From a virus, in IMG/VR virus record IMGVR_UViG_3300010149_000002, positions 14,842-78,841 of that record: DNA of 64,000 bases, one strand, 5' to 3'. Below the pieces are notes generated by a model that did no database searches, was not told the DNA's origin, and was given only the letters and a program-made list of their open reading frames with translations. Positions within the stretch are counted from its first letter, which is position 1. Every line of letters begins with the position of its first letter. Positions 1 to 23,474 of this stretch are shown here, one piece after another. A program made the position numbers and the translations under genes.

Positions 1-87
1 CCAATGTCATACCACACATTAGATTATGAAAAAGAATTAAAATACCACAATAGACTAAAAGAGTTAGTTGATAGATATAAAGTGTAA
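1..87 (+). CDS. 3' end of a hypothetical protein (partial)
   Basis: Open frame from window start (PMSYHTLDYEKELKYHNRLKELVDRYKV) ending in TAA at 85-87. Confidence 0.5.
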   Translation, partial: PMSYHTLDYEKELKYHNRLKELVDRYKV

Positions 88-164
88 TAAAATAATATTG
101 TAGACACGCACTCTCACACCCTAGTGGACACATCACACACACTCAGAAACCCTCACCCCTCCCC

Positions 165-219
165 TGCAAGAACCATGCCAAAAACTTGGCATCATAATTG
201 CATAGCAAGATACATGCCA
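165..219. promoter_or_regulatory. Cluster of three sigma-54 (-24/-12) elements in alternating orientation
   Basis: 165-180(-) TGGCATGGTTCTTGCA; 187-202(+) TGGCATCATAATTGCA; 204-219(-) TGGCATGTATCTTGCT; all have GG-N10-GC spacing. Confidence 0.7.
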
Positions 220-265
220 ACTCTCCTTAAGAAAACTTTAGCTGACAAACATATATTGTTTACAA

Positions 266-660
266 AGAATATACGCACATGCCTACTATGTTGGGCAATG
301 GACAACATCGGACTAAACATATTCTATTGAACTGCCACATATAGTTGGCTTACAGAATACCCTCTAGAATCCATTTAAAAGAATTATATGATACCAAGGT
401 AGGGTAAAATCTAAATGGATTGTAGGGCTATTTATGGGACGATAAGACATTGTCAAGAACTTTATTAAAATGCGAGTAAAGTAAATGCGAGTTGACATTC
501 AGGTTTTATGTCTTGTCAAGGGAATAATGCAATGTGAGTAATGAATCTAAATTGCTCGTATTGATAAATGCGAGTTGTTGCTCACATTATAATTTGCTAT
601 ATTGAATGTATAACATAACGCAACACGTTATTAACTACTAAAGGAGATTTATTTATGAAA
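266..660 (+). repeat. Regulatory module copy 1 (imperfect direct repeat of 1567-1914)
   Basis: Colinear blocks shared with copy 2: GAATATACG..ATGCC.ACTA, TAAAATCTAAATGGATT, TAGGGCTA, AAATGYGAGTTGACATTCAG..TGTCAAG, AATTTGCTATA.TGAAT, TAACGCAA, AAAGGA..ATGAAA. Confidence 0.8.
575..603 (+). promoter_or_regulatory. Sigma-70-type early promoter with extended -10
   Basis: TTGTTG-17-TATATT with TGn extension; RBS AAGGAG and ATG at 655 follow. Confidence 0.55.
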
Positions 661-825
661 AAATCATTTAGCGACTCGAGAATTAAAGAAGCTCAAAGAC
701 TACTAGAAAACGCTTTAAATGCTCAAAATGAGCAGGAAATTAAAGAAGAGCTTAATGAGGTTAGACTCAAGGTTAGTACTCTTTTGGCTCAATTAGGACA
801 TGACTTTAACAAGGTAGGTGCATAA
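655..825 (+). CDS. Small hypothetical early protein (56 aa)
   Basis: AAGGAG RBS; MKKSFSDSRIKEAQRLLENALNAQ...; below the ORF-track size cutoff. Confidence 0.7.
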   Translation: MKKSFSDSRIKEAQRLLENALNAQNEQEIKEELNEVRLKVSTLLAQLGHDFNKVGA

Positions 826-826
826 T

Positions 827-994
827 ATGGGACAAACAACCAATAAATTATTAGAGTTATTAGATGAGGGTATTTTAAATAAAGATACTGTAATTATGGC
901 TTGCTTAAAGTATATGAGTGAGGATGATGTTAACGATATGGCATTGTTAAATGAATTTATTGAAGATACTAATGAATATCCTGAGAATTTATAG
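827..994 (+). CDS. Small acidic hypothetical protein (55 aa)
   Basis: Coupled to the upstream ORF; MGQTTNKLLELLDEGILNKDTVIMACLKYMSEDDV... Confidence 0.7.
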   Translation: MGQTTNKLLELLDEGILNKDTVIMACLKYMSEDDVNDMALLNEFIEDTNEYPENL

Positions 995-1003
995 GGGGGG
1001 GTA

Positions 1004-1096
1004 ATGAAAAGCTTAGATTATATAATAATATTTTTACAGATAATTGCTATAATAATCGGTATCACTATAATAATTAATCATTTTATAATTGTATAA
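1004..1096 (+). CDS. Small hydrophobic membrane peptide (30 aa)
   Basis: MKSLDYIIIFLQIIAIIIGITIIINHFIIV, preceded by a G8 run that could serve as RBS. Confidence 0.5.
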   Translation: MKSLDYIIIFLQIIAIIIGITIIINHFIIV

Positions 1097-1139
1097 TACA
1101 TAAACACATAAACGGAATTTATTTAGTTCAATATCCTAC

Positions 1140-1501
1140 CTTATAAAGTGCCATTTTCTTGTGGCGATCTATTAGTACACTTCATTACACTGAGCATGGA
1201 TGCTTAAAGTGCCTTATATTTTGGGCATTAAAAGACTTACTAGTAGCCGAAAAATTCTACTAATTTGGTCATTTAATACCTAAACACTTATTGTTTACTT
1301 TCATGTTTGGCTTTAGCTATCGAGCTATTTATATAGTCATTTTATTTAGAGATTGCATACTAAATAAAACTTATTGAGGCGTTCGGCAAGGTACTTAATC
1401 TCTCGACACCTTGTGATATACTAAACAGATTTTGTTTAGTGAGGCTATCCTAGTCGGCTCTCTCATGCAATTCTTATGCCATTTTTTAACCGTCCTCAAT
1501 A
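1140..1501 (+). ncRNA. Candidate structured non-coding RNA (unknown family)
   Basis: No long ORF; about 11 consecutive stems plus a long-range closing stem 1372-1379/1494-1501; G-U wobbles favour the + strand. Confidence 0.55.
1466..1481 (-). promoter_or_regulatory. Sigma-54-like -24/-12 element
   Basis: TGGCATAAGAATTGCA. Confidence 0.6.
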
Positions 1502-1518
1502 TTACTATAGTTGTTAAA
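1501..1518 (-). promoter_or_regulatory. Putative phage late-promoter motif, antisense to the early region
   Basis: TTTAACAACTATAGTAAT, identical to the motif upstream of the late gene starting at 42441. Confidence 0.6.
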
Positions 1519-1566
1519 TAATCTTTATTTGTCAAGTTATTTATTAAACCATATAAATTTTATCAC

Positions 1567-1914
1567 AGAATATACGAATATGCCAACTATTTTTGTAAGG
1601 CTAATTTGTTCTCTAAGAGCTTTAAAAGTTTTTTGAATACTAGGTTAAGGATAAAATCTAAATGGATTCTAGCCTATATTGTGTGCCTTATAGGGCTATA
1701 TAGTAAGATTGTTTAGAGTGTTTTTAGTCCGATAAAATCAAATGTGAGTTGACATTCAGTTTATACATAGTGTCAAGAAAAAAATGAAATGTGAGCTTTA
1801 TATATCATTTTGCTCGCATTCTCTAAAAGTGAGTAAATATATATTGAATAATCATATTTAATTTGCTATAATGAATATAGAGATTAACGCAATAAATAAA
1901 GGAATTACATGAAA
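1567..1914 (+). repeat. Regulatory module copy 2, including a sigma-70 promoter (1844-1872)
   Basis: Colinear with 266-660; TTGAAT-17-TATAAT with TGn extension. Confidence 0.8.
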
Positions 1915-2268
1915 ACATCATTTTTAAAAGAAAGCGAAGTAAGTCAAATTTTAAATGCAAACGATAGAAAGTGTGACTATAATGTACATAGTGGTGGGCG
2001 TGTGATAGTTAATCATGAAGCAGGTGCATACAATAGTGGAACTATCAGAAAAGTGAAAGGACTTGACAATATCTATATTGCTTCATGCTCACTTGATTTT
2101 GGTGGTCAGCAATGGGTTGAAGTTTACGATAAAAGAGACTTAAATGTAATAGCTTATTTAAAGTCTGTAAGGACTTTAACAGAATTAAAAAACAGTGAAA
2201 AAGCCCAAGAGGAGTTAAAAAATATTAACGATAATTTAATTTGCTTAGAAAATAAAGGAGTAGTATAA
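1909..2268 (+). CDS. Hypothetical early protein
   Basis: ORF with AAGGA RBS downstream of promoter. Confidence 0.75.
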   Translation: MKTSFLKESEVSQILNANDRKCDYNVHSGGRVIVNHEAGAYNSGTIRKVKGLDNIYIASCSLDFGGQQWVEVYDKRDLNVIAYLKSVRTLTELKNSEKAQEELKNINDNLICLENKGVV

Positions 2269-2463
2269 ATGACACCTAATGAAAAAATGAATTTAAGGCA
2301 TGAAGTTTGGTTTTCACTATCTACAAACCAAAGAAGAAAGTTAACTTCAAATGGAATTTATGCAAATAATTTATATGATTGTCCAGTGTGGTTAATTGTA
2401 AAAGTTACACGTTCTAAAAAAATAATGGATAAGATGCGTAAAATATGGAAATGGTGGACTTAA
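2269..2463 (+). CDS. Hypothetical protein
   Basis: ORF with AAGGAG RBS, abuts upstream gene. Confidence 0.65.
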   Translation: MTPNEKMNLRHEVWFSLSTNQRRKLTSNGIYANNLYDCPVWLIVKVTRSKKIMDKMRKIWKWWT

Positions 2464-2475
2464 GGCGGTGGCATA

Positions 2476-2997
2476 ATGAAATTACAGATTGATAATACAT
2501 TTAACTTTGAACAAAGAAAAGTTATTGATAAATATTTTGAAATTGCAAAGGAAAAATTTAATATTCAAGACAAAATAATTTCTATTGAGATTAAAAATAG
2601 TGGTCGATTAAAAACAAGTGCAGGAAATGCAACAATTTATAGAATAAAGAATTGTGGGATTATTAAAATGAATAAAAGACTGTTTAATAGTACAGTAGGA
2701 ATAAAAGAATTTGAAAACACATTTTCGCATGAGCTTGCCCATGTTATAGCTAATATAATTCATAATTGTAATTGTGGACATGATGCAAGATGGAAAAGGA
2801 CTCATATAGCCCTTGGCGGTAATGCAAAAAGGACTCATAACTATGATGTGAGTCATTTAAGACCTACTAAAAATCGTTTTGACTATAAGTGTAATTGTCA
2901 AATTTTTAAATTAAGTGCAGTAAGGCACAATAAAATGCAAAATGGTAAAGCAAAGTATTACTGTAAAAAATGTAAAGAGTATCTAAAAAGAGTGTAA
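2476..2997 (+). CDS. SprT-like zinc metalloprotease
   Basis: HELAH zincin motif, GHDARWK, C-terminal CxC...CxxC zinc ribbon. Confidence 0.85.
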   Translation: MKLQIDNTFNFEQRKVIDKYFEIAKEKFNIQDKIISIEIKNSGRLKTSAGNATIYRIKNCGIIKMNKRLFNSTVGIKEFENTFSHELAHVIANIIHNCNCGHDARWKRTHIALGGNAKRTHNYDVSHLRPTKNRFDYKCNCQIFKLSAVRHNKMQNGKAKYYCKKCKEYLKRV

Positions 2998-3041
2998 TTT
3001 TTACATAGTATATTGATGCAATGAATAAAAACTGATATAAT
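2993..3041 (+). promoter_or_regulatory. Early promoter with TGTAA-N3-TTACA operator
   Basis: TGTAATTTTTACA, 7 nt, TTGATG-17-TATAAT. Confidence 0.75.
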
Positions 3042-3074
3042 AATTATAGAGAATAACACAAAGGAGATAAAAAA

Positions 3075-3248
3075 ATGAATAATTACAAAGAAAACGGATT
3101 CAAAGATAGAAACGATTATTTAGACTTTTTAGCAGATGATTATGGTGTAAGTGCTTATCAAGTTCATGTGATTGCTCAAATGCTAGGGGAGTCAGAAGAT
3201 TTTGACGGATTAATAACAAGTATTCAAGACTTAAGCGAAGGATTATAA
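3075..3248 (+). CDS. Small acidic hypothetical protein (57 aa)
   Basis: AAGGAG RBS; MNNYKENGFKDRNDYLDFLADDYG... Confidence 0.75.
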   Translation: MNNYKENGFKDRNDYLDFLADDYGVSAYQVHVIAQMLGESEDFDGLITSIQDLSEGL

Positions 3249-3436
3249 TGGAAAATTTAAGATACATTAAAACTAAAGAGAATTTTAAAAAAGATCAGAT
3301 TGTTCAATTAACTGAACCTGATAAAGATAATCAAATTGTTAGACGTTATAGAGTTATTATGTCAAGTGATTTATTTACAGATGAGAGTGATTTATATTAT
3401 ACAATTTTAGAAGAGATAAAAGGAAAGGTGCAATAA
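3248..3436 (+). CDS. Hypothetical protein
   Basis: Translationally coupled ORF. Confidence 0.65.
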   Translation: MENLRYIKTKENFKKDQIVQLTEPDKDNQIVRRYRVIMSSDLFTDESDLYYTILEEIKGKVQ

Positions 3437-3624
3437 TGAATAAAGAGCAATTAAAAATGATGATAAAAAGCGTTAGGACTGATTTAGAGCTATTCAAGTC
3501 AAGCGGACAAGTCTATCTACTAGAAAGGATTGAAAGCAATATAAGAGCTTTAAAAGACTGGAGAAATAACCTAGCATTAAAAGGTAATGAAACAATAAAA
3601 GAGCGTATGTTATGGGCGATTTAA
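3436..3624 (+). CDS. Hypothetical protein
   Basis: Translationally coupled ORF. Confidence 0.65.
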   Translation: MNKEQLKMMIKSVRTDLELFKSSGQVYLLERIESNIRALKDWRNNLALKGNETIKERMLWAI

Positions 3625-3693
3625 TGCCAATTTTTGTGGGCATCTTTATGTGGTGGGTTATTATGTCAATTGTAGAAGGTGATAAAAAAGGTA

Positions 3694-3742
3694 GGTAATT
3701 TTTACATAGTTCATTGACGCAATACAGATAATTTGATATAAT
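3694..3742 (+). promoter_or_regulatory. Early promoter with operator
   Basis: GGTAATTTTTACA, 7 nt, TTGACG-17-TATAAT. Confidence 0.75.
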
Positions 3743-3799
3743 ATTTATAAGGAAAGTTACTCGGACTCATGGAAGAGTCATTTTAAAGGAGATTAAAAA

Positions 3800-4144
3800 A
3801 TGAATACAGAATTAAATAAAAATCAATTTACTAATAAAGTCGATAAAAGATTGAATGAAATAATGGACGGTGTAAATTTTAGCACGTTATTAGATGAGGC
3901 GTGGGATTATGTTTGCGAAGTTCATAATGTATATGATGGGCAATTTAGTGAGTCTGATGAGCATGAAATTGAAAGGGAGCTGCATAAAAGGCATGGTTTT
4001 GATATGAGTTGGTATGATAAATTCAATCCAAGTCCACAGAAAAAAGCTGAAATTGCACAAAGAAAAATGAGTCAACTAGAAAAGTTTAGGCTTGAACAAG
4101 ATCAAATAATGGATATGTATAAGGGTGGTGATTTTGATGAATAA
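3800..4144 (+). CDS. Hypothetical early protein
   Basis: AAGGAG RBS; leader hairpin with ANGGA loop at 3764-3779. Confidence 0.75.
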   Translation: MNTELNKNQFTNKVDKRLNEIMDGVNFSTLLDEAWDYVCEVHNVYDGQFSESDEHEIERELHKRHGFDMSWYDKFNPSPQKKAEIAQRKMSQLEKFRLEQDQIMDMYKGGDFDE

Positions 4145-4361
4145 ATATGAGCAAATAAAATTAGTTGAGGAGTCAGATTTTGTACTAAATGATATTTATT
4201 TAGGTTATTCAGAGTTTTGGGACAAGGTAAACGAAATTGATTTAGACCCTGAAAAACTTACATTGTATGAAAAAGATATAGACATACTATATGATGCTCT
4301 AGTAGACTATATAAAGTTTAGAAGTAATTATAAAAATACATTAAAGGAGCTTATAAAATGA
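4137..4361 (+). CDS. Hypothetical protein
   Basis: Overlapping coupled ORF starting MNKYEQ. Confidence 0.65.
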
Positions 4362-5131
4362 TACAAATTAAAAATAGATTTACAGGTAATGTTATTAGAG
4401 AAGTTGAAAGTCTTAGTGAAGCTAATCTTAGGGGAGCTAATCTTAGGGGAGCTGATCTTAGTGAAGCTGATCTTAGGGGAGCTAATCTTAGGGGAGCTAA
4501 TCTTAGGGGAGCTAATCTTAGTGAAGCTGATCTTAGTGAAGCTGATCTTAGTGAAGCTAATCTTAGGGGAGCTGATCTTAGTGAAGCTAATCTTAGTGAA
4601 GCTAATCTTAGGGGAGCTAATCTTAGGGGAGCTGATCTTAGTGAAGCTGATCTTAGGGGAGCTAATCTTATGGTAGCTAATCTTAGTGAAGCTAATCTTA
4701 GTGAAGCTAATCTTAGTGAAGCTGATCTTATGGTAGCTAATCTTAGTGAAGCTAATCTTAGTGAAGCTAATCTTAGGGGAGCTAATCTTAGGGGAGCTGA
4801 TCTTAGTGAAGCTGATCTTAGGGGAGCTAATCTTAGGGGAGCTAATCTTAGTGAAGCTGATCTTAGTGAAGCTGATCTTAGTGAAGCTAATCTTAGGGGA
4901 GCTGATCTCGAAAAATGTAAAGGTATTCTATCATTTACTTGTGAAAAGCATTTAGGAATATATTTTAAATACGATAATGAATATTATTTTAAGATTGGTT
5001 GCATGACTAATACTGCTAAATGGTGGTTAGATAACTATAAAATAGTTGGTAAGATTGAAGAATATAGCGATAATGATATTAAAAAACATGGTATTATTTT
5101 AGAAGCTTATAGTAAAATAGAATTAGAATAA
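4358..5131 (+). CDS. Pentapeptide repeat protein
   Basis: About 33 A(N/D)L(RG/SE/MV) repeats between a short N-terminal segment and a globular C-terminal domain. Confidence 0.9.
4412..4909 (+). repeat. 15-bp coding minisatellite
   Basis: Units GCT(A/G)ATCTTA(GGGGA|GTGAA|TGGTA). Confidence 0.95.
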
Positions 5132-5149
5132 ACTAAAGGAGTTTATAAA

Positions 5150-5353
5150 ATGAAAATAGAGGACAAAGAATTTTTTGATTTTGAATTAGATGGCATCAAT
5201 TTTGCAGACTATCCAGACTTCTGTGATGCGTTTATAATTAATGCCAGTGTAGTTGATGGGAGTGAACCAAGAAAAGCCACAGATAGCGAATTAGAGCTTC
5301 TCAATGATGATTCTAGTCTAGTCTATGAGCTTGTAATGGAGCAGATTTTTTAA
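5150..5353 (+). CDS. Small acidic phage protein
   Basis: AAGGAG RBS; DGINFADYPDFCDAFI motif typical of small phage proteins. Confidence 0.75.
   Translation: MKIEDKEFFDFELDGINFADYPDFCDAFIINASVVDGSEPRKATDSELELLNDDSSLVYELVMEQIF
5191..5206 (+). promoter_or_regulatory. Sigma-54-like element (intragenic)
   Basis: TGGCATCAATTTTGCA. Confidence 0.6.
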
Positions 5354-5360
5354 AATACCC

Positions 5361-5410
5361 TGTAATTTTTTCATACTGCTATTGACGCAATACAGATAAT
5401 ATTAGATAAT
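5361..5410 (+). promoter_or_regulatory. Early promoter with operator
   Basis: TGTAATTTTTTCA, 8 nt, TTGACG-17-GATAAT. Confidence 0.7.
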
Positions 5411-5437
5411 AAATACAGAAATAAAGGAGAAATAAAC

Positions 5438-6019
5438 ATGACACAATTATTCACAAGAAATGGAAAGCTAAAAAAAGCAAGTGCATATACTGTAAATTTT
5501 GGAATACCTGCTTTAAAGACTTGCCCAATGAAGGATGTATGCGGTAAATATTGTTATGCTAATAAAGGTGCGTATAGTTGGCCAGTAGTTAAAAAAGCTT
5601 ATGAGCATAGATTTCAGCAGACTAGACGAGCTGACTTTCCACAGATTGCAGTTAAAGCATTATCTAAAAAACGTAAACTAGAAAAAGTTAGAATACATGA
5701 TAGCGGTGATTTTTACAATAAAGAATACCTTTACAAGTGGTTTAAGATTGCAGAGTCTATGCCAGATAAAGAGTTTTACGCATACACTAAGCAAGTAAAG
5801 CTTTTAAAAGACAATTGGACTAATAAGCCTAGCAATCTTACTATCATCTTTTCAATAGGCGGTAAACAAGATTCATTGATTGACCAAAATATTGACAGGC
5901 ATAGTAAAATTTTCAAAACACTTGAAGAGCTTAACGCATCGGGTTATAATGATACAAGTGATGATGATACCCAAGCGGTCAATCCAGAAAATCACAAAGT
6001 AGGGCTAGTAATTCACTAA
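5438..6019 (+). CDS. Gp88-like phage protein
   Basis: TCP..C..YCYA cysteine cluster, VRIHDSGDFY and FYAYTK motifs. Confidence 0.75.
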   Translation: MTQLFTRNGKLKKASAYTVNFGIPALKTCPMKDVCGKYCYANKGAYSWPVVKKAYEHRFQQTRRADFPQIAVKALSKKRKLEKVRIHDSGDFYNKEYLYKWFKIAESMPDKEFYAYTKQVKLLKDNWTNKPSNLTIIFSIGGKQDSLIDQNIDRHSKIFKTLEELNASGYNDTSDDDTQAVNPENHKVGLVIH

Positions 6020-6034
6020 AAAGGAGATATAAAA

Positions 6035-6283
6035 ATGAACAAAAAACTATTCAAAAACTTAGTAGGTAACAAATTTTTTACAGTAGTCTTTAGAAAAAAA
6101 GACGGTACACTTAGAACAATGAACGCAAGGCTAGGCGTTAAAAAGCATTTAAAGGGCGGTAAAAAGCTCTATGATAAGGCTAACCTTGTAACAGTGTATG
6201 ATATCACTAAAAAAGGTTATAGGACTGTAAACCTTGACAGCGTTCAAGAGATCAAAGCTAGTGGGCTTAAGGTAACAGTTTAA
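6035..6283 (+). CDS. Small SH3/Sm-like (WYL_2-like) phage protein
   Basis: FFTVVFRKKDGTLRTMNARLGV and VYD...GYRT motifs. Confidence 0.6.
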   Translation: MNKKLFKNLVGNKFFTVVFRKKDGTLRTMNARLGVKKHLKGGKKLYDKANLVTVYDITKKGYRTVNLDSVQEIKASGLKVTV

Positions 6284-6346
6284 TGGTTAAGGTTATACAA
6301 GGTTTATTTTTAACGTACTATTTAATTTATATTGTGTGAGGTAACA

Positions 6347-6571
6347 ATGACTAAACAAGATTTATTGACATTATATAATTTATCTAAAAATATAGATGGA
6401 CTTGAGAACGTCTATGACTTCATATCAGGCGTTTATGAAATTGCCTATGGTGATCATGCTATTAATAAAAATTACAGCTCAGAAGAAGTTTTACAGCGTA
6501 TACAGGACTTTTCAGATGATGCCTTGACTTATGAAACGTATCATAAACTTAGTAAAAAGAATACTATGTAA
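6347..6571 (+). CDS. Hypothetical protein
   Basis: GAGGT RBS before MTKQD. Confidence 0.6.
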   Translation: MTKQDLLTLYNLSKNIDGLENVYDFISGVYEIAYGDHAINKNYSSEEVLQRIQDFSDDALTYETYHKLSKKNTM

Positions 6572-6616
6572 AAATTACATAGTTCGGTTGACGCAAAGCA
6601 CAATACATGAGATAAT
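6565..6616 (+). promoter_or_regulatory. Early promoter with operator, upstream of rIIA
   Basis: TATGTAAAAATTACATA palindrome, TTGACG-17-GATAAT. Confidence 0.75.
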
Positions 6617-6647
6617 AATTAAGAGTTAAACTAAAGGAGAATAACAC

Positions 6648-8735
6648 ATGATTAACATTCAAGAAAAAGTAGACGTAACAAAAAGTCAGGAATTTACAGG
6701 CAATCAAATGAGCATTGACCCTGAATTTTTTAATAAAATGATTTGGCTTGTTATTAAGCAATATAAGTATAAGGTTAGAACATCATTACAAGAGCTAATT
6801 TCTAATGCTCAAGATGCTCAAGTTGAAGCAGGTAATGGTGATAGAAAATTAAAAATAACTTTACCGACAAAATTAGAACCGACTTTCAAGCTTCGTGATT
6901 TTGGCACAGGTATGACACCAGACGTTATCAATAAAATTTATTGTAACATGGGGGCATCTGGTAGCTCACACACTAATGCAAAAAAGGGTGGTTTTGGTAT
7001 TGGTGGAAAATCTCCTTTAGGTTTTTGTGACCAGTATAATATCAAGACTTATGTTGACGGTACGTTTTGGTATTATGCTGTTTACAAAAATGAACTAAAC
7101 GGAATTAATGTTGATTTAGTTCATACTGGAGATACCACAGAAGAAAACGGCACAGAAATTATTATACCATCTAAAAGGGATCAACTAGAACAGTTTAAAA
7201 ATGGTGCAGTAAGAGCGACATATTTTTGGGATAATCAGCCTATTTTTAATTTTGAAATGCCTAAACGTCCTAAAGGTATTAAAATTAGTGATAAATTTAC
7301 AGTATACAATGGCAGAGAATTTGCAAGTAATTTAGGGCTATCCAGTTCTTATTATTCAGCACAGGGTATTGTTATTTTAGTTGATGGTATACCTTATCTA
7401 GTTGAAAGCGATATGTTAAGGCAATGTGATGAACTTAAAAAAGCTGATAATATTTTATCAAGTAATTCAGTTTTAGTTTATAAAATTGGTAATGGCGAAT
7501 TAAAAGTGCTTCAAACTAGGGAATCATTAGAAGAGTGTGAATACACATTCAATAGACTAAATAAAATTGGTTTAGACATTCAAAAAGAGTTTAAAAGGTA
7601 TTCTAACGAGCTTTTAAAACCTACTATAATTGACACCTATAAAGCATATAAAGAAGCTATAGAGTTATTTACAGGGCTTCCAAGTATTGATTTTAATGCT
7701 CATGTAAAGATTAATAGAAACGGTATCATGTACTTAAATGATCTTACTAAACAAGATAACTTTTTATTTGAAGCGGTAGAGTATCATTACAGATCACAAA
7801 GGTATAGACAAGTATTAACAAATTCTAAAAGAGAAAATAAAACCTTTCAACAATTACCATTAGATAAACTAAACAGTTTTTATTTAGATGATATTGGTGA
7901 TACAGAAAGTGAGCAAATGAAAGCTAGACGTTGTAAGCATTTTATTGAACCATCTAAAGGAGAGATCACATACATTAAAAAAACTGATATGCCCACAGAG
8001 CTTTATAATTTACTTCTAAACGAATTAGAATTAAACGTGATATCTAGCCTACCTTTGCCTCCTAAAAAGGCTAAGACAAAGAATACAAGCACTAAAAAAA
8101 CGCTTGATAAAGGTAAGATTGATATTCACATTGTTGAAAGAAGTACAGCATGGGGAAGTAATGCTTATGTAAGAAATTGTAGAACAATTGACCTAAATAA
8201 AAACCTTGATAATAAAATACTATGGTGCGATTATTCGACTAGCACAATGTATGATGCAAGAGATTATGTTGATTTTTTCAAGTCCAAAGGTTTTTTATTT
8301 GGATTTGTTTCTAAGAAATACCAAACTAAGATTAAAAATGACGATAGGTTTATGCAAGTAGATGAGTTTATGAATAATCTAAGCTTTACAACAGAAGAAA
8401 AAGAATATATGATTCAAAAAGGAGCGTATGCATATGGCGGTTATAGAGATAATGATATCATAAACCAAAAGCTTGCTATCATGGTAAAAAGAGTTAGTTC
8501 TAAAAAAATTAGAGCAATGATTAATGATGTAATGCGTCCTAAAAAAGAATTAGATATTCCACGTAATTTATATTGGGATATGCAAGATCAATTAAAAGAC
8601 GAGATAAAAGAGAGAAATGACAAGGCTGATATGCTTGGCAAGTATTTAAAAAGGAGATATCCTAAATTTAAAAACAATGACGATTTAGATTATATTAACA
8701 GAGTAAACAAAACTTATTTACAAGGGAGATTCTAA
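6648..8735 (+). CDS. rIIA: RIIA-like protein (N-terminal GHKL ATPase)
   Basis: ELISNAQDA, RDFGTGM, GGFGIGGKSP, NGTEI motifs; followed by an rIIB-like gene. Confidence 0.85.
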   Translation: MINIQEKVDVTKSQEFTGNQMSIDPEFFNKMIWLVIKQYKYKVRTSLQELISNAQDAQVEAGNGDRKLKITLPTKLEPTFKLRDFGTGMTPDVINKIYCNMGASGSSHTNAKKGGFGIGGKSPLGFCDQYNIKTYVDGTFWYYAVYKNELNGINVDLVHTGDTTEENGTEIIIPSKRDQLEQFKNGAVRATYFWDNQPIFNFEMPKRPKGIKISDKFTVYNGREFASNLGLSSSYYSAQGIVILVDGIPYLVESDMLRQCDELKKADNILSSNSVLVYKIGNGELKVLQTRESLEECEYTFNRLNKIGLDIQKEFKRYSNELLKPTIIDTYKAYKEAIELFTGLPSIDFNAHVKINRNGIMYLNDLTKQDNFLFEAVEYHYRSQRYRQVLTNSKRENKTFQQLPLDKLNSFYLDDIGDTESEQMKARRCKHFIEPSKGEITYIKKTDMPTELYNLLLNELELNVISSLPLPPKKAKTKNTSTKKTLDKGKIDIHIVERSTAWGSNAYVRNCRTIDLNKNLDNKILWCDYSTSTMYDARDYVDFFKSKGFLFGFVSKKYQTKIKNDDRFMQVDEFMNNLSFTTEEKEYMIQKGAYAYGGYRDNDIINQKLAIMVKRVSSKKIRAMINDVMRPKKELDIPRNLYWDMQDQLKDEIKERNDKADMLGKYLKRRYPKFKNNDDLDYINRVNKTYLQGRF
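7310..7325 (+). promoter_or_regulatory. Sigma-54-like element (intragenic)
   Basis: TGGCAGAGAATTTGCA. Confidence 0.55.
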
Positions 8736-8736
8736 T

Positions 8737-9489
8737 ATGAATTACATTATGACACCACAGGGAGTTACACTAAGTTACGAAGGAAATTTTATCACAATAG
8801 CAGAGGGAGATCATCGCTACAATGCGATCTTAGAGGCTATCAAAGATGGTAGGCTAGAGGATGTACCAAGTCTTGTAGACGTTTCTAAGACGTTCTCAGA
8901 GGTTGAGGGAGTCGATCTAGTAGATGGTCACATCTATATTAATGACAAGAAAATTCCAGAGGTCTTAACTGATAGGGTATTGAACTTTAAAGACAAGGGG
9001 TTGCCCTTTGAACCATTAATGAAATTTGCTGAGAAGCTTATGGAGAACCCAAGTTATAACTCAAGGCTTATGCTTTACAAGTTCTTAGAACATAACGGAC
9101 ACCCTATCACAAAAGATGGCAACTTTATTGCATACAAAAAAGTTAGAAGAGACTTTACAGATTGTCACACAGGTAAGATGGATAACAGTGTTGGCATGAT
9201 TGTTGCAATGCCAAGAGAAGAAGTTGATGATAATCCAGACAATACTTGCTCTAGTGGGCTTCACGTTGCTGCATATAACTATGCTAATACGTTCTCACAA
9301 GGTCACTTGTTAGAAGTCGAGATTGACCCTAAAGACGTTGTAGCCGTTCCTAATGACTATGATGGTGAGAAAATGAGAGTATGTAAGTATGTTGTAAAGA
9401 AAATTTGTGAGTCAAGACTTGATGATGTTGACTTATATGAACTATGTGACGAATATCTAGATGAACAGTTAAATGAATGGGGGTATTAA
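8737..9489 (+). CDS. rIIB: RIIB-like protein
   Basis: ITKDGNFIAYK, MPREEVDDNPDNTCSSGLH, DVVAVPNDY..KMRVC motifs. Confidence 0.9.
   Translation: MNYIMTPQGVTLSYEGNFITIAEGDHRYNAILEAIKDGRLEDVPSLVDVSKTFSEVEGVDLVDGHIYINDKKIPEVLTDRVLNFKDKGLPFEPLMKFAEKLMENPSYNSRLMLYKFLEHNGHPITKDGNFIAYKKVRRDFTDCHTGKMDNSVGMIVAMPREEVDDNPDNTCSSGLHVAAYNYANTFSQGHLLEVEIDPKDVVAVPNDYDGEKMRVCKYVVKKICESRLDDVDLYELCDEYLDEQLNEWGY
9192..9207 (+). promoter_or_regulatory. Sigma-54-like element (intragenic)
   Basis: TGGCATGATTGTTGCA. Confidence 0.6.
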
Positions 9490-9490
9490 A

Positions 9491-10111
9491 ATGATTATTG
9501 GTGAAAGACTAAATAAATTTGATTTAGAGACAGATGGTACACTAAAAAGCTTCAATGAAATATTTGCAGAGTGTCCTGTAAAGCTTGACGTTAGTCCTGA
9601 GAGCGTTTTAGAGATAGGGGATATAGTAGGTACAGGCAAAGAAAATGTAAGGTATCTAAACTTAGATGGCGAGCAAATTACCCATGTATTTGAAAAGGAA
9701 AGGTATTTCAAACCAGATGCAGATTTTGGGATGAAAGGTAACACTGGAATAAGAGCACATTATAAACTAGAAAATACAAAGACAGGTGAGGTATTTGAAG
9801 CTAATAAATTATCAGAATTAGCAGAAATATCAGGCGTACCTCATTATAGAGTAGGTAAAATAAGCTCAGGATCGATAAAGTGCGATACTTTTAAGATCAC
9901 AAAACGTAAAGCAAGTAAGAAACCTAAAAAGGACATTAAGCCTAAAAAAGAATGGATGTATTTTGTGACAAAAGGTAATGAGGAACATAGATTCAAACTT
10001 GCAAAAGAAGTTGCAAAGTTTTTAAACGTATCTAAAATAACAGTATCTTTTTATACAACAAAAAAATGGAATAACTCACAAGGTTGGTCGGTAGACAGGA
10101 GAAAAGTATAA
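9491..10111 (+). CDS. Hypothetical protein with NUMOD1-like DNA-binding repeats
   Basis: TGEVFEANKLSELAEISGV and FKLAKEVAKFLNVS repeats. Confidence 0.55.
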   Translation: MIIGERLNKFDLETDGTLKSFNEIFAECPVKLDVSPESVLEIGDIVGTGKENVRYLNLDGEQITHVFEKERYFKPDADFGMKGNTGIRAHYKLENTKTGEVFEANKLSELAEISGVPHYRVGKISSGSIKCDTFKITKRKASKKPKKDIKPKKEWMYFVTKGNEEHRFKLAKEVAKFLNVSKITVSFYTTKKWNNSQGWSVDRRKV

Positions 10112-10335
10112 TGGAAACAATTGTAAAATATAACAACAGAAAATTATACAGTAAAAAATGTAAGCACTATGTAAACAATTCTTATTTAATTGATCTAATA
10201 AGACTTGGACATACTTTTGAGATCAAAGAACATAAAACCGACCAAGACGTAACTGGCACAGTTCTTGCAAGTTGTATTAGTGACTTGAACCTTGATGGTG
10301 TCAAGTTGACAAATTTCATCAAGGAGAATTTATAA
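10111..10335 (+). CDS. PhaR/PHB-accumulation-regulator-like DNA-binding domain protein
   Basis: IVKYNNRKLY...YV....LIDLIRLGHTFEIKEHKTDQDVT..VL resembles the PhaR N-terminal IKKYxNRRLYD...KTGEDxT pattern. Confidence 0.75.
   Translation: METIVKYNNRKLYSKKCKHYVNNSYLIDLIRLGHTFEIKEHKTDQDVTGTVLASCISDLNLDGVKLTNFIKENL
10254..10269 (+). promoter_or_regulatory. Sigma-54 consensus element (intragenic)
   Basis: TGGCACAGTTCTTGCA, full TGGCAC-N5-TTGCA consensus. Confidence 0.65.
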
Positions 10336-10574
10336 TGAATATCTTAGACTTCCTTACAATGATGCAGACAAGTTTATTTGCAAAAGGCTTAGATACAACA
10401 GTGTCAATTGGCAGCAAGGTGACACTGGAAATAGAGGACGTAGAGAGTTCTAAGACGGTTGCAGTAATAACAGGTGATACACTAGAAGAAGCCTATGCAA
10501 ACCTATTAGGAGCTATGTCAGGAGCTGTGAGAGACACTAAAACAGGACGCTATCAAGGTCTATCGAGGTTATAA
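10335..10574 (+). CDS. Hypothetical protein
   Basis: AAGGAG RBS, coupled. Confidence 0.7.
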   Translation: MNILDFLTMMQTSLFAKGLDTTVSIGSKVTLEIEDVESSKTVAVITGDTLEEAYANLLGAMSGAVRDTKTGRYQGLSRL

Positions 10575-10719
10575 TGATCAATAAAAAAGACTTAATAGAA
10601 GCAATAGAAGCAATTTCAAATACTTTAGAAGCTAATGGGTTAGACACTTTTGTATTAGACCAGTACATTAATAATCAAAAAATTATAATATGGGAAGAAG
10701 AAACAGGAGAAGGTTTGTA

Positions 10720-10956
10720 ATGATTATAGTAAAGCTTGTATTAATTGTCTCACTGTGTTATCTTATAGGAAGAGGACTTTCTAGAGAGCTAGAAAGAGAA
10801 GCAGATGAGGCTAAAAAGCAGACAAAGGACATTAGGAATAAATCTAAAGAAGCTTATCAACTTATGCAAGCTGAAAAGAGAGTCTTAGTGAATACAATTA
10901 ATGAACTTAGAGAAGAGATTGACACTTTAAAGAAGCTTAATAGGAGACTAAAGTGA
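10720..10956 (+). CDS. Membrane-anchored coiled-coil protein
   Basis: N-terminal TM helix then heptad-rich region. Confidence 0.6.
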   Translation: MIIVKLVLIVSLCYLIGRGLSRELEREADEAKKQTKDIRNKSKEAYQLMQAEKRVLVNTINELREEIDTLKKLNRRLK

Positions 10957-11109
10957 CTAATAAAGAGCTGCTTGATATGTTTAGGTCATCTAGTTACTTA
11001 AACTTTATGAAGTTCTTAGAAAATGAGATAGAATTTGTAGATGAATACCCATGTGCTTTTTGTAAAGATAAACCATGTGGAGAAGATCATTGTGATAGAA
11101 ACAAGGAGT

Positions 11110-11331
11110 ATGATAATGAATCCAACGATTAGACAGTTTATGGTAGCTGTATTTTGCACAGTGTTGCTTGCCAGTTGTGCAGTTAGATTGCCAGAGCGAT
11201 CTAATGTTAAAAAGAAAAAGCCAAAGAATCATATAAGCAAGATGAAGGAATGTGTTGATGCCTTTATGAATGATCATGGTGTAGGTATTGAAGAAGCTTT
11301 TAATACTTGTGAAAAGATTTATAGGAGGTAA
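11110..11331 (+). CDS. Putative lipoprotein
   Basis: AAGGAG RBS; hydrophobic leader with LASC lipobox. Confidence 0.6.
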   Translation: MIMNPTIRQFMVAVFCTVLLASCAVRLPERSNVKKKKPKNHISKMKECVDAFMNDHGVGIEEAFNTCEKIYRR

Positions 11332-11332
11332 T

Positions 11333-11539
11333 ATGACACCCATTGAAAGCTATCATAGATATAAAAACACACAATGGTATAGAAGTTATCGTAAAAAGTT
11401 TGAAAAAGGCTATAGAGAAGAGAATAGAATCATGTGGAATTTAAAGTCATGGAAATCTATGAGAAAGAAATATGGAAAGACAACTTCCCTAAAACAAGAG
11501 TTTGAATACTTAATGATAAGAACTTTAAGAGATTTATAG
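11333..11539 (+). CDS. Hypothetical basic protein
   Basis: GGAGG RBS before MTPIES. Confidence 0.6.
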   Translation: MTPIESYHRYKNTQWYRSYRKKFEKGYREENRIMWNLKSWKSMRKKYGKTTSLKQEFEYLMIRTLRDL

Positions 11540-11702
11540 GAGATAGTATGCTTCATCTAATATACAAAGATACAAATTGTATTCTTTACACAGGTACTAA
11601 AAAAGAACTTGCAAAGATTATGGAAAACTTATATAATAATTGTAGGAGTCATTATAAAGTGGTTTCTAAGCAGTATATAAAAGAATTAGATTGGGAGTTT
11701 TA

Positions 11703-12686
11703 ATGAAAAACATAAGACTGTCACACTCCGCAGCAGAAAAGTTTAAAACCTGCGGAGCACTTTATCGCCATCATTACGTTGATCGTATAAGACCAGTTGC
11801 AATGGGAAGTGCTCTTTTTTTTGGATCGGCAGTTGATGAGGCATTGAATGTTTTATTAGGATCTAAGAAACAGATTGTCACCTATAAATTTGACGAGAGT
11901 GTTAGTGTTTTGCAACATGCTTATGACGAATTTGATACGTTGTGGTGTGAGCAATTAGAAAATAAAAATGTAGAATACTTCAAGTCAGATATTGATCTAA
12001 GTGTTTTACTTGATATTGATTTAGAAGATATTTCAGAGTTTGATAAAGAAGTAGAAAACATTGAAGAGTTTTTAAAAGAATGTTTCACTATTCTAAAAAA
12101 TAAAGAAAAATTGTGTGAAGAGGATCAAGCATTGTATAATAGAATAGCTTGGCATAGTTTATATAGAAAAGGCATGATGCTCATTGAAGCATATAATAAT
12201 GACATTATGCCACAAATCCATACAGTATTTGATATCCAAAGGAAAGTAGAACTACCGGATGAGCATGGCAACCTTTTAATAGGCTATATAGATGCCGTAG
12301 TTAGCTTTATAGACGCTCCAGATAGAAAGGTGATACTTGATAACAAGACAAGTTCAAAGCCGTACAAGGACGATTCTGTATCGACTTCTCCACAGCTTGC
12401 AACTTATTGTGAAAGTGAGGGTATAGAGTACGGTGCGTTTGGTGTTGTAGAGAAAGCCATAAGAAAAAGAGAGCCAAGAACTAGGACTCAATTAATTATT
12501 GATAAAATTCCTGAGAAATTACTTGACGAAACATTTGAAATGTATGATAATGTTTTAGAGGGCATTGAGAATGAAGAGTTTGATAAGAACTATGACTCTG
12601 GATGTTTTTTCTATGGTAAACCTTGTAGTTACTATGCGTACTGTAGAAGTAATGGTAAGAATAAAGATGGATTGGAGGAAGTATAA
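11703..12686 (+). CDS. PD-(D/E)XK (Cas4/RecB-like) exonuclease
   Basis: LSHS..C N-terminus, GYIDAV, ILDNKTS, QLATY, C-terminal Cys cluster. Confidence 0.85.
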   Translation: MKNIRLSHSAAEKFKTCGALYRHHYVDRIRPVAMGSALFFGSAVDEALNVLLGSKKQIVTYKFDESVSVLQHAYDEFDTLWCEQLENKNVEYFKSDIDLSVLLDIDLEDISEFDKEVENIEEFLKECFTILKNKEKLCEEDQALYNRIAWHSLYRKGMMLIEAYNNDIMPQIHTVFDIQRKVELPDEHGNLLIGYIDAVVSFIDAPDRKVILDNKTSSKPYKDDSVSTSPQLATYCESEGIEYGAFGVVEKAIRKREPRTRTQLIIDKIPEKLLDETFEMYDNVLEGIENEEFDKNYDSGCFFYGKPCSYYAYCRSNGKNKDGLEEV

Positions 12687-13012
12687 TGGCACAATTAGAG
12701 AAACTAAAAAAAGCAGACCTTGTAAAGCTTGCTAGAGAACTTAAGCAAGATAACAAGCTTTTAAAAAAAGAACTAGAGAATGTTCAGTCAGGCGAGCTAG
12801 ATGATTCTAAGCTACCGTTATATGCTCATACCTACTACAAAGACGGTGACAAGCATGTTGTAGACGTTATGAAGTACTCTCCAGAATCAAACAATGTAAA
12901 AGTCATTGAGAAGATTGTAGAGAATACTAAAGAGCTTGCATTGTTCAAATTAGAAATGGTAATTGTAGATAAATTTCATCAACAAGTATATGAAAGGAGT
13001 AATAATGAGTAA
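12686..13012 (+). CDS. Hypothetical protein
   Basis: Coupled ORF with RBS. Confidence 0.7.
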   Translation: MAQLEKLKKADLVKLARELKQDNKLLKKELENVQSGELDDSKLPLYAHTYYKDGDKHVVDVMKYSPESNNVKVIEKIVENTKELALFKLEMVIVDKFHQQVYERSNNE

Positions 13013-13454
13013 ACTAACAGAACTACTAAACTCTAGGCACCAAGACCTAGACTTTGAACTAGGAACATTACACAGTCTATATCAATTAGCTAACAATGTT
13101 GCAAAAAAACTAGATGTAGAGGCAGAAGCCAATACAGTACTAACTGCAATGCAAAATAGACTAATGGATAAACTAAATGTTGACATTGAGGACATTGCAG
13201 AAGATGAAGAAATTGACGTAGAGGACTTAGACTTTGCAGTTATTTATGACCATTTAGGTACAGCATTTTTTCATGCAAAGACTGAAATGGCATCATACTT
13301 GCAGTTTGACAGTACACTAAATAATCTAAAAAGACTTGGTGCTACAGATGACGAAGTGGAAAAATTACAGGGTTTCAAAAAAAGACTTGAAAGAACAATA
13401 TTTGACAGGTATGATGTAACTGAGGATGATCTTAAGGAGGATGGAGATGAATAA
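13005..13454 (+). CDS. Hypothetical acidic protein
   Basis: AAGGAG RBS before MSKLTE. Confidence 0.7.
   Translation: MSKLTELLNSRHQDLDFELGTLHSLYQLANNVAKKLDVEAEANTVLTAMQNRLMDKLNVDIEDIAEDEEIDVEDLDFAVIYDHLGTAFFHAKTEMASYLQFDSTLNNLKRLGATDDEVEKLQGFKKRLERTIFDRYDVTEDDLKEDGDE
13288..13303 (+). promoter_or_regulatory. Sigma-54-like element upstream of the ERF gene
   Basis: TGGCATCATACTTGCA. Confidence 0.6.
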
Positions 13455-14025
13455 GTTTTTAAAAAAAGTTGCAGAAATTCAACAAACGCTAAAAGCACCA
13501 AAGAATCAATTTAATAAATTTGGAGGATATGCTTATAGAAATTGTGAGGATATACTAGAAGCAGTAAAACCTTTACTTGGCGACCTAGTTTTAACTGTTA
13601 GCGATAAGATTATCACAGTTGGAGAAGGCGAGGACATGAGAGTATATGTTGAGGCTACTGCTAAAGTAACTAACGGAGAAGAAGTATTAGAAAATACAGC
13701 GTCAGCCAGAGAACCATTAGACCAAAAAGGGATGAACGAGGCACAGATAACAGGTAGTGCAAGTTCATATGCTAGAAAGTATGCACTAAATGGATTGTTT
13801 CTAATTGATGATACCAAAGATGCTGATGCAACTAATGATCATGGTAAGGGAGAAGCTAAAAAAACTTCTACAAGAAAGAAAAAAGAAGATACTAAAGAAA
13901 AGCCAAAAAGAACTAGAACAAAAAAAGAAGAGCCAAAGGAAGAACCAGAGGCTAAGGAAGAGTCTAAAGAAGAACCAGAAGAAAAACCAAAGAAACGTGG
14001 AAGAGGTTTTAGGAGAAAAGGATAA
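13447..14025 (+). CDS. ERF-family single-strand annealing protein
   Basis: LKAPKNQFNKFGGYAYRNCEDILEAVKP and QITGSASSYARKYALNGLF motifs. Confidence 0.9.
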   Translation: MNKFLKKVAEIQQTLKAPKNQFNKFGGYAYRNCEDILEAVKPLLGDLVLTVSDKIITVGEGEDMRVYVEATAKVTNGEEVLENTASAREPLDQKGMNEAQITGSASSYARKYALNGLFLIDDTKDADATNDHGKGEAKKTSTRKKKEDTKEKPKRTRTKKEEPKEEPEAKEESKEEPEEKPKKRGRGFRRKG

Positions 14026-15535: not shown

Positions 15536-16537
15536 ATGCAATTTAGCAGTAAAAGAAGAGAACAAGCAGGTATTCGATCTCTTGGTGAGCTAAGAAGAAA
15601 GGGTAGGGTAAAGCGTGGAAGCGATCCTGATCTATTCGTTCATGGTACACCAGAGTTTGATTGCTTGGTACATAAATGGAGTCGTAAAGAGGTCTTAGGA
15701 GTCATTGGAGACAGTGGTGTTGGTAAGTCAGAGGTTGTGTTACAAATGATAAAAGACATCCTTGTATCGAATCCTGAGAGCTGTGGAGTATATGTATCAC
15801 TAGAAATGACTGACCAAGAAATAGCAAAGCGTTGGTTTGAAATGACAGGTGACGATGAGGATTTAGCAGACAGGTTATTTATATTATCTAGGTATGACGA
15901 TGAGGGTAAGTCTAGAGAAGGTATTAGTATGCGTTGGATTAAAGAGCAACTAAATATCTATAAAGATGCAATTGGTGATATTAGTTGTTTTGCACTAGAC
16001 CATTTGCATGTATTGGGAGAGAATGACCCAAGTACTTTAAATTCAATTATGGTTGCTGTAAAAGAAATGGCGGTTAACTTAAATTGTTTAGGAATACCAA
16101 TGGCACAGGTCAATAAGAGTTCTGGAGGAAAGGGTGAGATACCTTTAGATGCCGACTCTGTACTTGCTTGTAGTCAATTTAAGTATATCTCTAATAACAT
16201 CATACAAATACATAGACCTATATTGAGATTAGAGGAGGATGCAGGTATAAGTATACTAGGATGGGGATATGCTAAAATTAGAGAGGCTAATAAAGAGGAC
16301 AAGGTAAAAAGAGGTCAGAATAAATTACTAGCTTATGATAGGGACTTAAGATGTATTCGTAAAATGACTACAGAAGAGTACACTATTTTTAAACTATATT
16401 ATAATACTTTATTAGAAATGAAGTCTGCGGAAGAAAGAAGTAAGTCTTTTTCTTATGATTTAACTAAAGAAGTAAAGGGCAAAGACGGTAAAGTTGTCCA
16501 GATTAAAGAGATATTTAGTGGAGATTCAGGTGAGTAA
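15536..16537 (+). CDS. DnaB-like (RecA-fold) replicative helicase
   Basis: Walker A GDSGVGKS, SLEM, LDHL, AQVN motifs. Confidence 0.8.
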   Translation: MQFSSKRREQAGIRSLGELRRKGRVKRGSDPDLFVHGTPEFDCLVHKWSRKEVLGVIGDSGVGKSEVVLQMIKDILVSNPESCGVYVSLEMTDQEIAKRWFEMTGDDEDLADRLFILSRYDDEGKSREGISMRWIKEQLNIYKDAIGDISCFALDHLHVLGENDPSTLNSIMVAVKEMAVNLNCLGIPMAQVNKSSGGKGEIPLDADSVLACSQFKYISNNIIQIHRPILRLEEDAGISILGWGYAKIREANKEDKVKRGQNKLLAYDRDLRCIRKMTTEEYTIFKLYYNTLLEMKSAEERSKSFSYDLTKEVKGKDGKVVQIKEIFSGDSGE

Positions 16538-17042
16538 TGAGGTTTGGAAGGATATTATAGGGTATGAAGGTTTATACAAAGTATCGAACAAAGGTAAAGT
16601 GTATAGCCTTTTATCCAATAAAGAACTTTCTCAAAACAAAACAAATGGGAATGGTTATATAATTTGTACATTGTGTAAGAATAAACAAAAGAAAAATAAA
16701 TATGTACATAGATTAGTAGCCTACCATTTTGTTGAAAACAAAAATAACGATAATATAGTAAACCATATTGACGGTAATCTAAAAAATAATAATGCCGACA
16801 ATTTAGAATGGTGTGACCAAAAAAGAAATGTTAGACATTATATTGAAAATGGTTTAAAATCAGATTACGGAGTAAACTCTCCAAATACAAAATTAAATAA
16901 AAGAGATATATTAGAAATAAGACATTACTTAAAAGAAGGTAGTATCACACAAAAAGAAATAGCTTTAATTTACGATGTTTCTCAGACTACAATTAGTCAT
17001 ATAAACCTTAACAAGAGACATGCTAATCGTGCGGAGGATTAA
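16530..17042 (+). CDS. NUMOD4-HNH homing endonuclease
   Basis: EVWKDIIGYEGLYKVSNKG, VHRLVA, VNHIDGNLKNN..NLEW. Confidence 0.9.
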   Translation: MSNEVWKDIIGYEGLYKVSNKGKVYSLLSNKELSQNKTNGNGYIICTLCKNKQKKNKYVHRLVAYHFVENKNNDNIVNHIDGNLKNNNADNLEWCDQKRNVRHYIENGLKSDYGVNSPNTKLNKRDILEIRHYLKEGSITQKEIALIYDVSQTTISHINLNKRHANRAED

Positions 17043-22799: not shown

Positions 22800-22907
22800 C
22801 GAAATGTAGCTCAGTTGGTTAGAGCACCTGACTATGAAGCAAGCGACTAGGTAACGAAATCGTGAGGCGGAGGGAGGTCGGTGGTTCGATTCCACCCATT
22901 TCGACCA
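22800..22907 (+). tRNA. tRNA-like RNA (Pro-type acceptor end) with an aberrant, expanded anticodon/variable region
   Basis: Acceptor CGAAATG/CATTTCG-A-CCA, D-arm GCTC/GAGC, T-arm GGTGG-TTCGATT-CCACC; 54 nt instead of about 23 nt between D and T arms. Confidence 0.75.
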
Positions 22908-22919
22908 TTAAGGAGTATT

Positions 22920-23474
22920 ATGAATATTAGTTTACCGCCAATGGGCGTTTACATTAGAAACAAATTTACACATCATAAAGATGATCCAAACTACAATGGT
23001 AAGACATGGGGTAGACTTATTGGTATAAGATCTTTACAGAATCAAGCTATGCAGTTTCAAGTGTTATTAGAAACAGGGGCATTGTTTACAGGACTTCCTG
23101 CCCATGCAATATGTTTTGAAGAAGATGCACCTGATAGAAATCTTATAGATTGTCAGATGTGGGACAGTATTAGCTCCAAGATTGATTATGTTCAGTATAA
23201 AACTTTACTTTATATGCCATGTAACTTAAAGCTTCATTCAGGAGAACTTATAAAAGGTGAGTATCTATTTACAATTGACCATGTTGGAGAAGATGACCTA
23301 AGTCGTGATCCTACCGAGTGGAAAATGTTTCATGTTATAAAGTCAGATGAAGGTAATATACATTTATATCCACAATATAGAATACAGTTTTTAGATGATG
23401 CATTATCGTCTAAAGCAGAAGGTGGACTACCAAGATATCAATTTAATGAAACAATATGGAGATTGGGATCGTGA
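22920..23474 (+). CDS. Conserved hypothetical phage protein
   Basis: AAGGAG RBS before MNISL; LLETGALFTGLPAHA motif. Confidence 0.7.
   Translation: MNISLPPMGVYIRNKFTHHKDDPNYNGKTWGRLIGIRSLQNQAMQFQVLLETGALFTGLPAHAICFEEDAPDRNLIDCQMWDSISSKIDYVQYKTLLYMPCNLKLHSGELIKGEYLFTIDHVGEDDLSRDPTEWKMFHVIKSDEGNIHLYPQYRIQFLDDALSSKAEGGLPRYQFNETIWRLGS

Follow-up and report, generated by a model that had tools for sequence, protein, structure and literature searches.

The 64,000-nucleotide stretch of virus DNA analysed here, referred to below as the window, corresponds to bases 14842-78841 of the 78,841-base IMG/VR record IMGVR_UViG_3300010149_000002 and concentrates ten exact boxes of the sigma-54 (RpoN) type, with -24 and -12 elements, in a single 13.3-kb region that holds early and DNA-metabolism genes. 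On balance we favor the explanation that these boxes form a promoter tier dependent on the sigma-54 of the host, together with a conserved control module placed where the early region starts. To judge from their geometry and composition, the identification as sigma-54-type boxes is strong, and part of the early program of this phage and its relatives probably runs on sigma-54 taken from the host.

Exact boxes and their statistics

The pattern TGGCA-N6-TTGCW was found ten times when both strands of the window were scanned, always within 165-13303 and at a density of about 1 per 1.3 kb. A scan of the whole circular genome of 78.8 kb found no exact copy in the other 65 kb. The ten boxes are the following.

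165-180, minus strand: box A, exact; faces left into a G-run and stands back to back with box B, the -24 pentamers 6 bp apart
187-202, plus strand: box B, exact; faces right and stands face to face with box C, the -12 pentamers 1 bp apart
204-219, minus strand: box C, exact; faces left, 44 nt upstream of repeat block D5 of cassette copy 1
1466-1481, minus strand: box 1466, exact; faces left, 83 nt upstream of cassette copy 2
5191-5206, plus strand: box 5191, in open reading frame (ORF) 5150-5353, sense; 232 nt before a GP88-family gene
7310-7325, plus strand: box 7310, in rIIA, sense; next start 1.4 kb away
9117-9132, plus strand: box 9117, in rIIB, sense; next start 341 nt away
9192-9207, plus strand: box 9192, in rIIB, sense; next start 266 nt away
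10254-10269, plus strand: box 10254, in ORF 10084-10335 (PhaR-type DNA-binding domain), sense; 66 nt before the next gene
13288-13303, plus strand: box 13288, in ORF 12990-13454, sense; 123 nt before the ERF recombinase gene

Four of the boxes are non-coding (165-, 187+, 204- and 1466-) and six are intragenic, all six in the sense orientation of the gene that carries them. None lies among the virion genes, and seven of the ten read TGGCAT. Within TGGCA-N6-TTGC the GG and GC doublets are exactly 10 bp apart and in the right order, as in sigma-54 -24/-12 elements. The spacing is strict, with ten copies in the genome at N6 against 0-1 at each of the other spacers from N2 to N11. A model of tandem direct-repeat half-sites was rejected, versions with swapped halves or with one half repeated being absent from the genome.

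A sequence-only reading of the window had listed nine exact elements, all of which were recovered; the tenth, at 9117-9132 on the plus strand, had been overlooked. Its observation that the intragenic copies all follow the direction of transcription applies to six of six rather than to five, and its finding of no exact match in the rest of the window can be extended to the whole 78,841-base genome. Three of the near matches that it reported (5749, 11178 and 18301) are real one-mismatch sites, whereas the fourth (27132) carries two mismatches; as a class, one-mismatch boxes number 11 against about 6 expected, at most a weak enrichment. The word network, which it had applied to the boxes, is a fair description.

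That the boxes are chance occurrences or coding by-products without function may hold for single sites, but as an account of the whole set it is contradicted and we regard it as highly improbable. Dinucleotide-preserving shuffles (n=100) gave a mean of 0.26 boxes and a maximum of 2, none reaching the observed ten. Shuffles of synonymous codons that keep each protein, a check that the sequence-only reading had proposed, revealed a strong enrichment: the mean over 1000 shuffles was 0.23 intragenic sense boxes and the maximum 3, none reaching 6, which places the observed number 26-fold above the shuffles. The strict N6 spacing, the empty 65 kb and the scarcity of boxes in five cultured phages with rIIA/B (2 in 742 kb) likewise speak against chance. 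Box 9117, which is encoded by a conserved peptide, and the lack of positional conservation of the intragenic boxes, both described below, are the observations that chance would explain readily.

Recurrence in related phages

Relatives were represented by 100 non-redundant loci around rIIA homologues, amounting to 1.23 Mb with a GC content of 30-52%. At the N6 spacing these loci contain 55 boxes, compared with 1-6 for other spacings. Swapped or homo-repeat versions occur 1-7 times, as opposed to 38 in the sigma-54 order. Forty-eight of the boxes lie in the 535 kb situated 0-8 kb upstream of rIIA, 34 of them co-oriented, and 7 lie in the 670 kb downstream. Some relatives have a box in a short intergenic gap before a gene, for example before rIIA in L033 and L087 and before a Shine-Dalgarno (SD) sequence with ATG in L106. 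An unrelated phage contig of 43% GC, L033 (OCZT010000419.1), has ten exact boxes in 11 kb (699-11784) around rIIA, several of them in short intergenic gaps, and constitutes a second, independent network. The enrichment is nevertheless specific to some lineages, because the five cultured rIIA/B phages hold only the 2 boxes mentioned above and Flavobacterium phage immuto holds none in 160 kb.

The composition of the flanks and spacers was compiled from 66 distinct sites in this phage and its relatives. T makes up 50% at position -1, C or T 80% at position 6, G 45% at position 7 and A or G 73% at position 8, and C is nearly absent after TTGCW. These free positions, none of which had been used in the search, fit the published sigma-54 consensus YTGGCACGr-N3-TTGCW. 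The assignment of the element to the RpoN -24/-12 consensus, made earlier from the letters alone, is thus well supported by the strict geometry, by the free positions and by recurrence across unrelated backgrounds. The related loci have almost no early genes in common with the window and no early protein co-occurs with the boxes, which fits a reader encoded by the host. Because the box recurs across phages with so few common early genes and over a GC range of 30-52%, a universal host factor would be the simplest reader.

In principle, the motif could instead be read by a factor other than sigma-54, such as a phage DNA-binding protein (for example the PhaR-type product of 10084-10335) or an unrecognised sigma-like factor, the likeness to sigma-54 boxes then being convergent. 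The phage has an invariant late-type motif, TTTAACAACTATAGTA, and no recognisable sigma or polymerase gene in the phage to go with it, which would mean that it does encode transcription factors that escape recognition. A small PhaR-type DNA-binding protein is indeed encoded in the region, and the two halves of the box are alike except for one base and are separated by one turn of the helix, an arrangement also seen in the sites of some regulators that bind in tandem. Such a reader is, however, difficult to reconcile with the absence of homo-repeat and swapped versions from the genome and their rarity in relatives, with the fit of the free positions to the sigma-54 consensus, or with the recurrence of the box over so wide a GC range. 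The PhaR-type gene is present in nine related loci, only one of which has at least two boxes, and the protein was rejected as the box reader for this lack of co-occurrence; no other early gene tracks the boxes. We consider a reader of this kind quite unlikely.

The non-coding cluster and the early control cassettes

Boxes A, B and C (165-219) interlock, the first two standing back to back and the last two face to face. They adjoin a C-rich tract, and each of two copies of an early control cassette has leftward boxes ahead of it, the 165-219 cluster in one case and box 1466 in the other.

100-164, plus strand: C-rich tract poor in G (G-rich on the minus strand), adjoining the box cluster on its left
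247-655, plus strand: early control cassette copy 1, blocks D5, D6, D1 and D3, then SD and ATG at 655
1529-1910, plus strand: early control cassette copy 2, blocks D10, D5, D6, D1 and D3, then SD and ATG at 1909

Both cassettes are about 400 nt long and have repeat blocks in common, including a TTGACA...TGTCAA palindrome.

Two or three interlocked, mutually exclusive boxes with a C-rich tract make up a module that marks the start of the early region and is conserved in at least six divergent relatives from aquatic phage lineages. Comparable clusters lie by C-runs, 3-8 kb upstream of rIIA, in L004, L100 (genome G001), L101, L099 (genome G003), L027 and L095, and the face-to-face pairing of B and C is also seen in L004, L100 and L101. 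In the complete relative G001 the three boxes of the cluster are the only ones in 84.8 kb, and the surrounding gene layout is as in the window. A 28-nt block at 251-278 is 93% identical in L100, despite rIIA proteins that are about 32% identical.

As to function, the module may serve as a switch or as an insulator, or it may be an origin or an end-proximal element. It seems to us unlikely, though worth stating, that it represents a new kind of sigma-54-gated control element rather than an ordinary promoter, serving either as a replication origin or as a checkpoint for the early cassettes. In the first version, transcription from the leftward box would give a G-rich RNA, and this RNA would prime replication as an R-loop in the manner of T4 oriF/oriG or mitochondrial CSBII. 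In the second, host polymerase parked at a genome end or terminal-repeat boundary would decide whether the early cassettes are read.

The non-coding stretch at 1130-1455 is rich in hairpins, with a folding z of -3.07 on the minus strand against -1.84 on the plus strand. It may correspond to a minus-strand RNA made from box 1466 and the late-type motif, an orphan copy of which (1503-1518, minus strand) lies 22 nt upstream of that box. No Rfam family matched 1130-1455, and Rfam and tRNA scans of window positions 1-14000 returned nothing relevant.

Intragenic boxes and the proteins that carry them

Three of the six intragenic boxes lie in the rII genes of the plus-strand block; the rIIA homologues P0002-P0005 are 71-77% identical to the rIIA of this phage.

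6648-8735, plus strand: rIIA
8737-9489, plus strand: rIIB

Box 9117 is spelled by the rIIB peptide DGNFIAY, which is conserved in about 50 homologues. The exact box occurs in only 3 of these, about the chance rate, and the copy in this phage reads TGGCAA, off the Y preferred at position 6. Box 9117 is probably an incidental by-product of the conserved peptide.

At three other sites the protein itself differs from its family. At box 7310 this phage has Gly (GGC) and Ala (GCA), residues that are absent from the family consensus and are replaced by Ser and Ser in an rIIA that is 77% identical. Box 9192 is missing from L002, L003 and L004, whose rIIB proteins are 65-70% identical, and the Ala (GCA) that this phage has there is mostly Glu in the family. 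At box 10254 the phage reads DVT-G-T-V-L-A and its homologues DVT-E-x-C-L-K. That the departures at 7310, 9192 and 10254 fall exactly at the GGC and GCA codons suggests a recent gain of these boxes under selection on the DNA. The rIIA of L002 carries a box about 10 codons from the 7310 position, but an rIIA-internal box as a conserved feature was rejected, the nearby one being found in L002 only and the region aligning poorly.

A proposed host-dependent promoter tier

From the results above we infer that sigma-54 holoenzyme would bind the boxes, and with regard to firing, timing and activator the infection could proceed as follows. It would start from ordinary sigma-70-type early promoters (for example those at 3714, 5382 and 6588). 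A second, activator-gated tier would consist of the sense-oriented -24/-12 boxes that run through the early and DNA-metabolism genes, most of them acting as promoters. Since the phage encodes neither sigma-54 nor an activator, both would be supplied by the host, and the tier would report the state of the host. The triple cluster would probably be a switch between leftward and rightward initiation, because overlapping boxes cannot all be occupied at once.

No gene for a sigma-54 DNA-binding domain or for an AAA+ activator was found in the whole genome or in three complete relatives, and the PF00158 domain was absent from the same four genomes. The remark in the sequence-only reading that no bacterial enhancer-binding protein or sigma-54 gene is evident in the window therefore holds for the whole genome.

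Several observations weigh against a promoter tier of this kind. No shared k-mer or dyad was found upstream of the boxes, a result with which a host activator and site-specific enhancers are still compatible. The boxes of the cluster overlap and cannot all be promoters at the same time, and the G-run spans the melting region of box A, which would be awkward for a promoter that fires. The intragenic boxes are not at a fixed distance from gene starts, box 7310 being 1.4 kb away from the next one, and for one of the ten, box 9117, the peptide offers the by-product explanation given above. The three intragenic boxes that could be compared (7310, 9192 and 10254) are not kept in position in relatives. 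Conservation in related phages had been proposed earlier as a check, and it is seen in the non-coding cluster as a module and not in the positions of the intragenic boxes. Overall, the earlier interpretation is supported in part: the sigma-54 identity of the element stands, and the proposed coupling of infection to the physiological state of the host is a conjecture.

Some of the same observations would be accommodated by boxes that hold sigma-54 holoenzyme without serving as starts of transcription, the polymerase being parked in stable closed complexes. Such complexes could function as insulators or roadblocks at the entrance of each cassette and inside the early genes, as a sink that titrates sigma-54 of the host, or as a means of loading polymerase on the incoming DNA. 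It is established that sigma-54 holoenzyme forms stable inactive closed complexes (PMC4591121). The lack of an activator gene and of a shared enhancer would be expected of such complexes, as would cluster boxes that overlap and face each other with a G-run over the melting region of box A, and a complete relative, G001, whose only boxes are those of its cluster. Leftward boxes stand ahead of both cassettes even though the strand in question has no gene to the left of them. A roadblock or a sink needs no orientation, yet all six intragenic boxes and 34 of the 48 upstream boxes of the relatives are co-oriented, and several relatives put a box in a short gap directly ahead of a gene. We regard parked polymerase as a somewhat unlikely explanation.

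If the boxes fire, as the host-sigma-54-dependent tier that we favor would require, early phage expression would be wired to a host signalling pathway, providing a link between host physiology and the outcome of infection. If they do not, the virus would be exploiting a transcriptionally silent polymerase complex for a structural or regulatory purpose. A set of uncultured aquatic phages that have little in common beyond rIIA/rIIB concentrates perfect boxes within the opening kilobases of the early region, and the apparent overwriting of protein by a DNA motif would lend itself well to the study of selection on overlapping codes.

Other features of the genome and clues to the host

The ends of the record overlap by 123 bases, which indicates a circular assembly. 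Virion-type genes are on the minus strand, and a long plus-strand block (genome positions 11305-48828) contains small early genes, rIIA, rIIB, a PD-(D/E)XK nuclease and the ERF recombinase, as well as genes for a DnaB-type helicase, PolA, ribonucleotide reductase (RNR), dUTPase and ClpP-like proteins. The phage was detected in marine metagenomes, and in no RNA run, and is without a close cultured relative according to protein and DNA comparisons. Contigs from runs X8-X11 were short, identical and of low depth, and showed no variation, starts or ends. Megablast of window positions 1-14000 against phages gave 0 matches, and a locus search in viral contigs with the rIIA of the window and its homologues P0007 and P0008 found no closer relatives.

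The host is probably not a Bacteroidota-type organism, because SD sequences are frequent (59% of phage genes against 7% in Flavobacterium phage immuto) and the sigma-70-type promoters are of the textbook kind. Best protein matches point the other way, PolA being 47% identical to that of immuto and RNR about 60% identical to that of Cytophagales. Immuto was rejected as a model for this phage, having no boxes and almost no SD use.

The sigma-70-type promoters at 3714-3742, 5382-5410 and 6588-6616 are near-identical, with TTGACGCAA, a 17-nt spacer and TATAAT or GATAAT. They have an upstream block in common, and AAGGAG and a start codon follow each of them. The invariant motif TTTAACAACTATAGTA occurs in 7-8 copies on the minus strand, mostly about 30 nt ahead of virion-gene starts, and looks like a late promoter candidate. 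Its copies are the following.

1503-1518, minus strand: TTTAACAACTATAGTA
42473-42488, minus strand: TTTAACAACTATAGTA
48292-48307, minus strand: TTTAACAACTATAGTA
54388-54401, minus strand: TTTAACAACTATAGTA
Upstream of the window (L199): four more copies

A pentapeptide-repeat protein at 4358-5131 (Pfam E 1.5e-94), the DNA of which is an almost perfect array of 15-nt repeats, may imitate DNA in the manner of Qnr/MfpA. Genes related to the nucleotide pool comprise a MazZ-like dATP/dGTP diphosphohydrolase domain, a dUTPase and a MazG-like pyrophosphohydrolase (30001-30834, 23456-23902; L199:14255-14569). A 2-aminoadenine (Z) genome, an idea prompted by the MazZ-like domain, was dropped as a PurZ homologue is absent. 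An Rfam tRNA match at 22800-22904 (50.9 bits, 105 nt), for which ARAGORN makes no call, suggests an insert in the anticodon arm. A homing-endonuclease gene of the NUMOD4/HNH type at 16494-17042 adjoins the helicase gene.

Comparison with known systems

Phages are commonly held to transcribe nearly all of their genes with sigma-70 or with polymerases of their own, and, to our knowledge, use of the activator-gated sigma-54 polymerase has so far been demonstrated experimentally for one phage only, YuA. In the 2008 work of Ceyssens et al., YuA is reported to have about three sigma-54 promoters in the region for particle formation and lysis. The phage described here differs in having ten boxes, mostly intragenic and located in the early and DNA-metabolism region, in addition to an interlocked cluster, and its need for rpoN is only predicted. 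The likeness between the two is that of virulent tailed phages without a sigma-54 or activator of their own, with -24/-12 elements of the host type beside sigma-70-type promoters, and with a dependence on host RpoN that is documented for Pseudomonas phage YuA (PMC5053324; PMC10914365) and predicted here. The two phages appear to be unrelated, the best phage matches of the proteins described here lying elsewhere.

Intragenic sigma-54 sites are familiar from E. coli and Salmonella. A survey of E. coli places 62% of its 135 sigma-54 sites inside genes, with 68% of these in the sense orientation and several acting as promoters for downstream genes (PMC4591121). Like the boxes of this phage, the intragenic sites of that survey are near-consensus and biased toward the sense strand; some drive a downstream gene through long leaders, and many are without known output. 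They are spread over a chromosome of 4.6 Mb at about 1 per 35 kb, in contrast to about 1 per 1.3 kb here, where phage protein has apparently been bent to carry the boxes.

The middle-mode (MotA/AsiA) promoters of phage T4 are a second class of promoters that lie scattered through the early region in the sense orientation, often inside upstream genes, atop early read-through, and two of them (oriF and oriG) prime replication through R-loops. In T4, sigma-70 is remodelled by phage proteins and the promoters combine a -30 MotA box with a -10 element, whereas the boxes described here have sigma-54 geometry and no phage factor has been identified for them. The likeness to T4 is an analogy of layout and not membership in the same system; within it, the leftward box pointing into the G-run might be compared with the priming at oriF and oriG.

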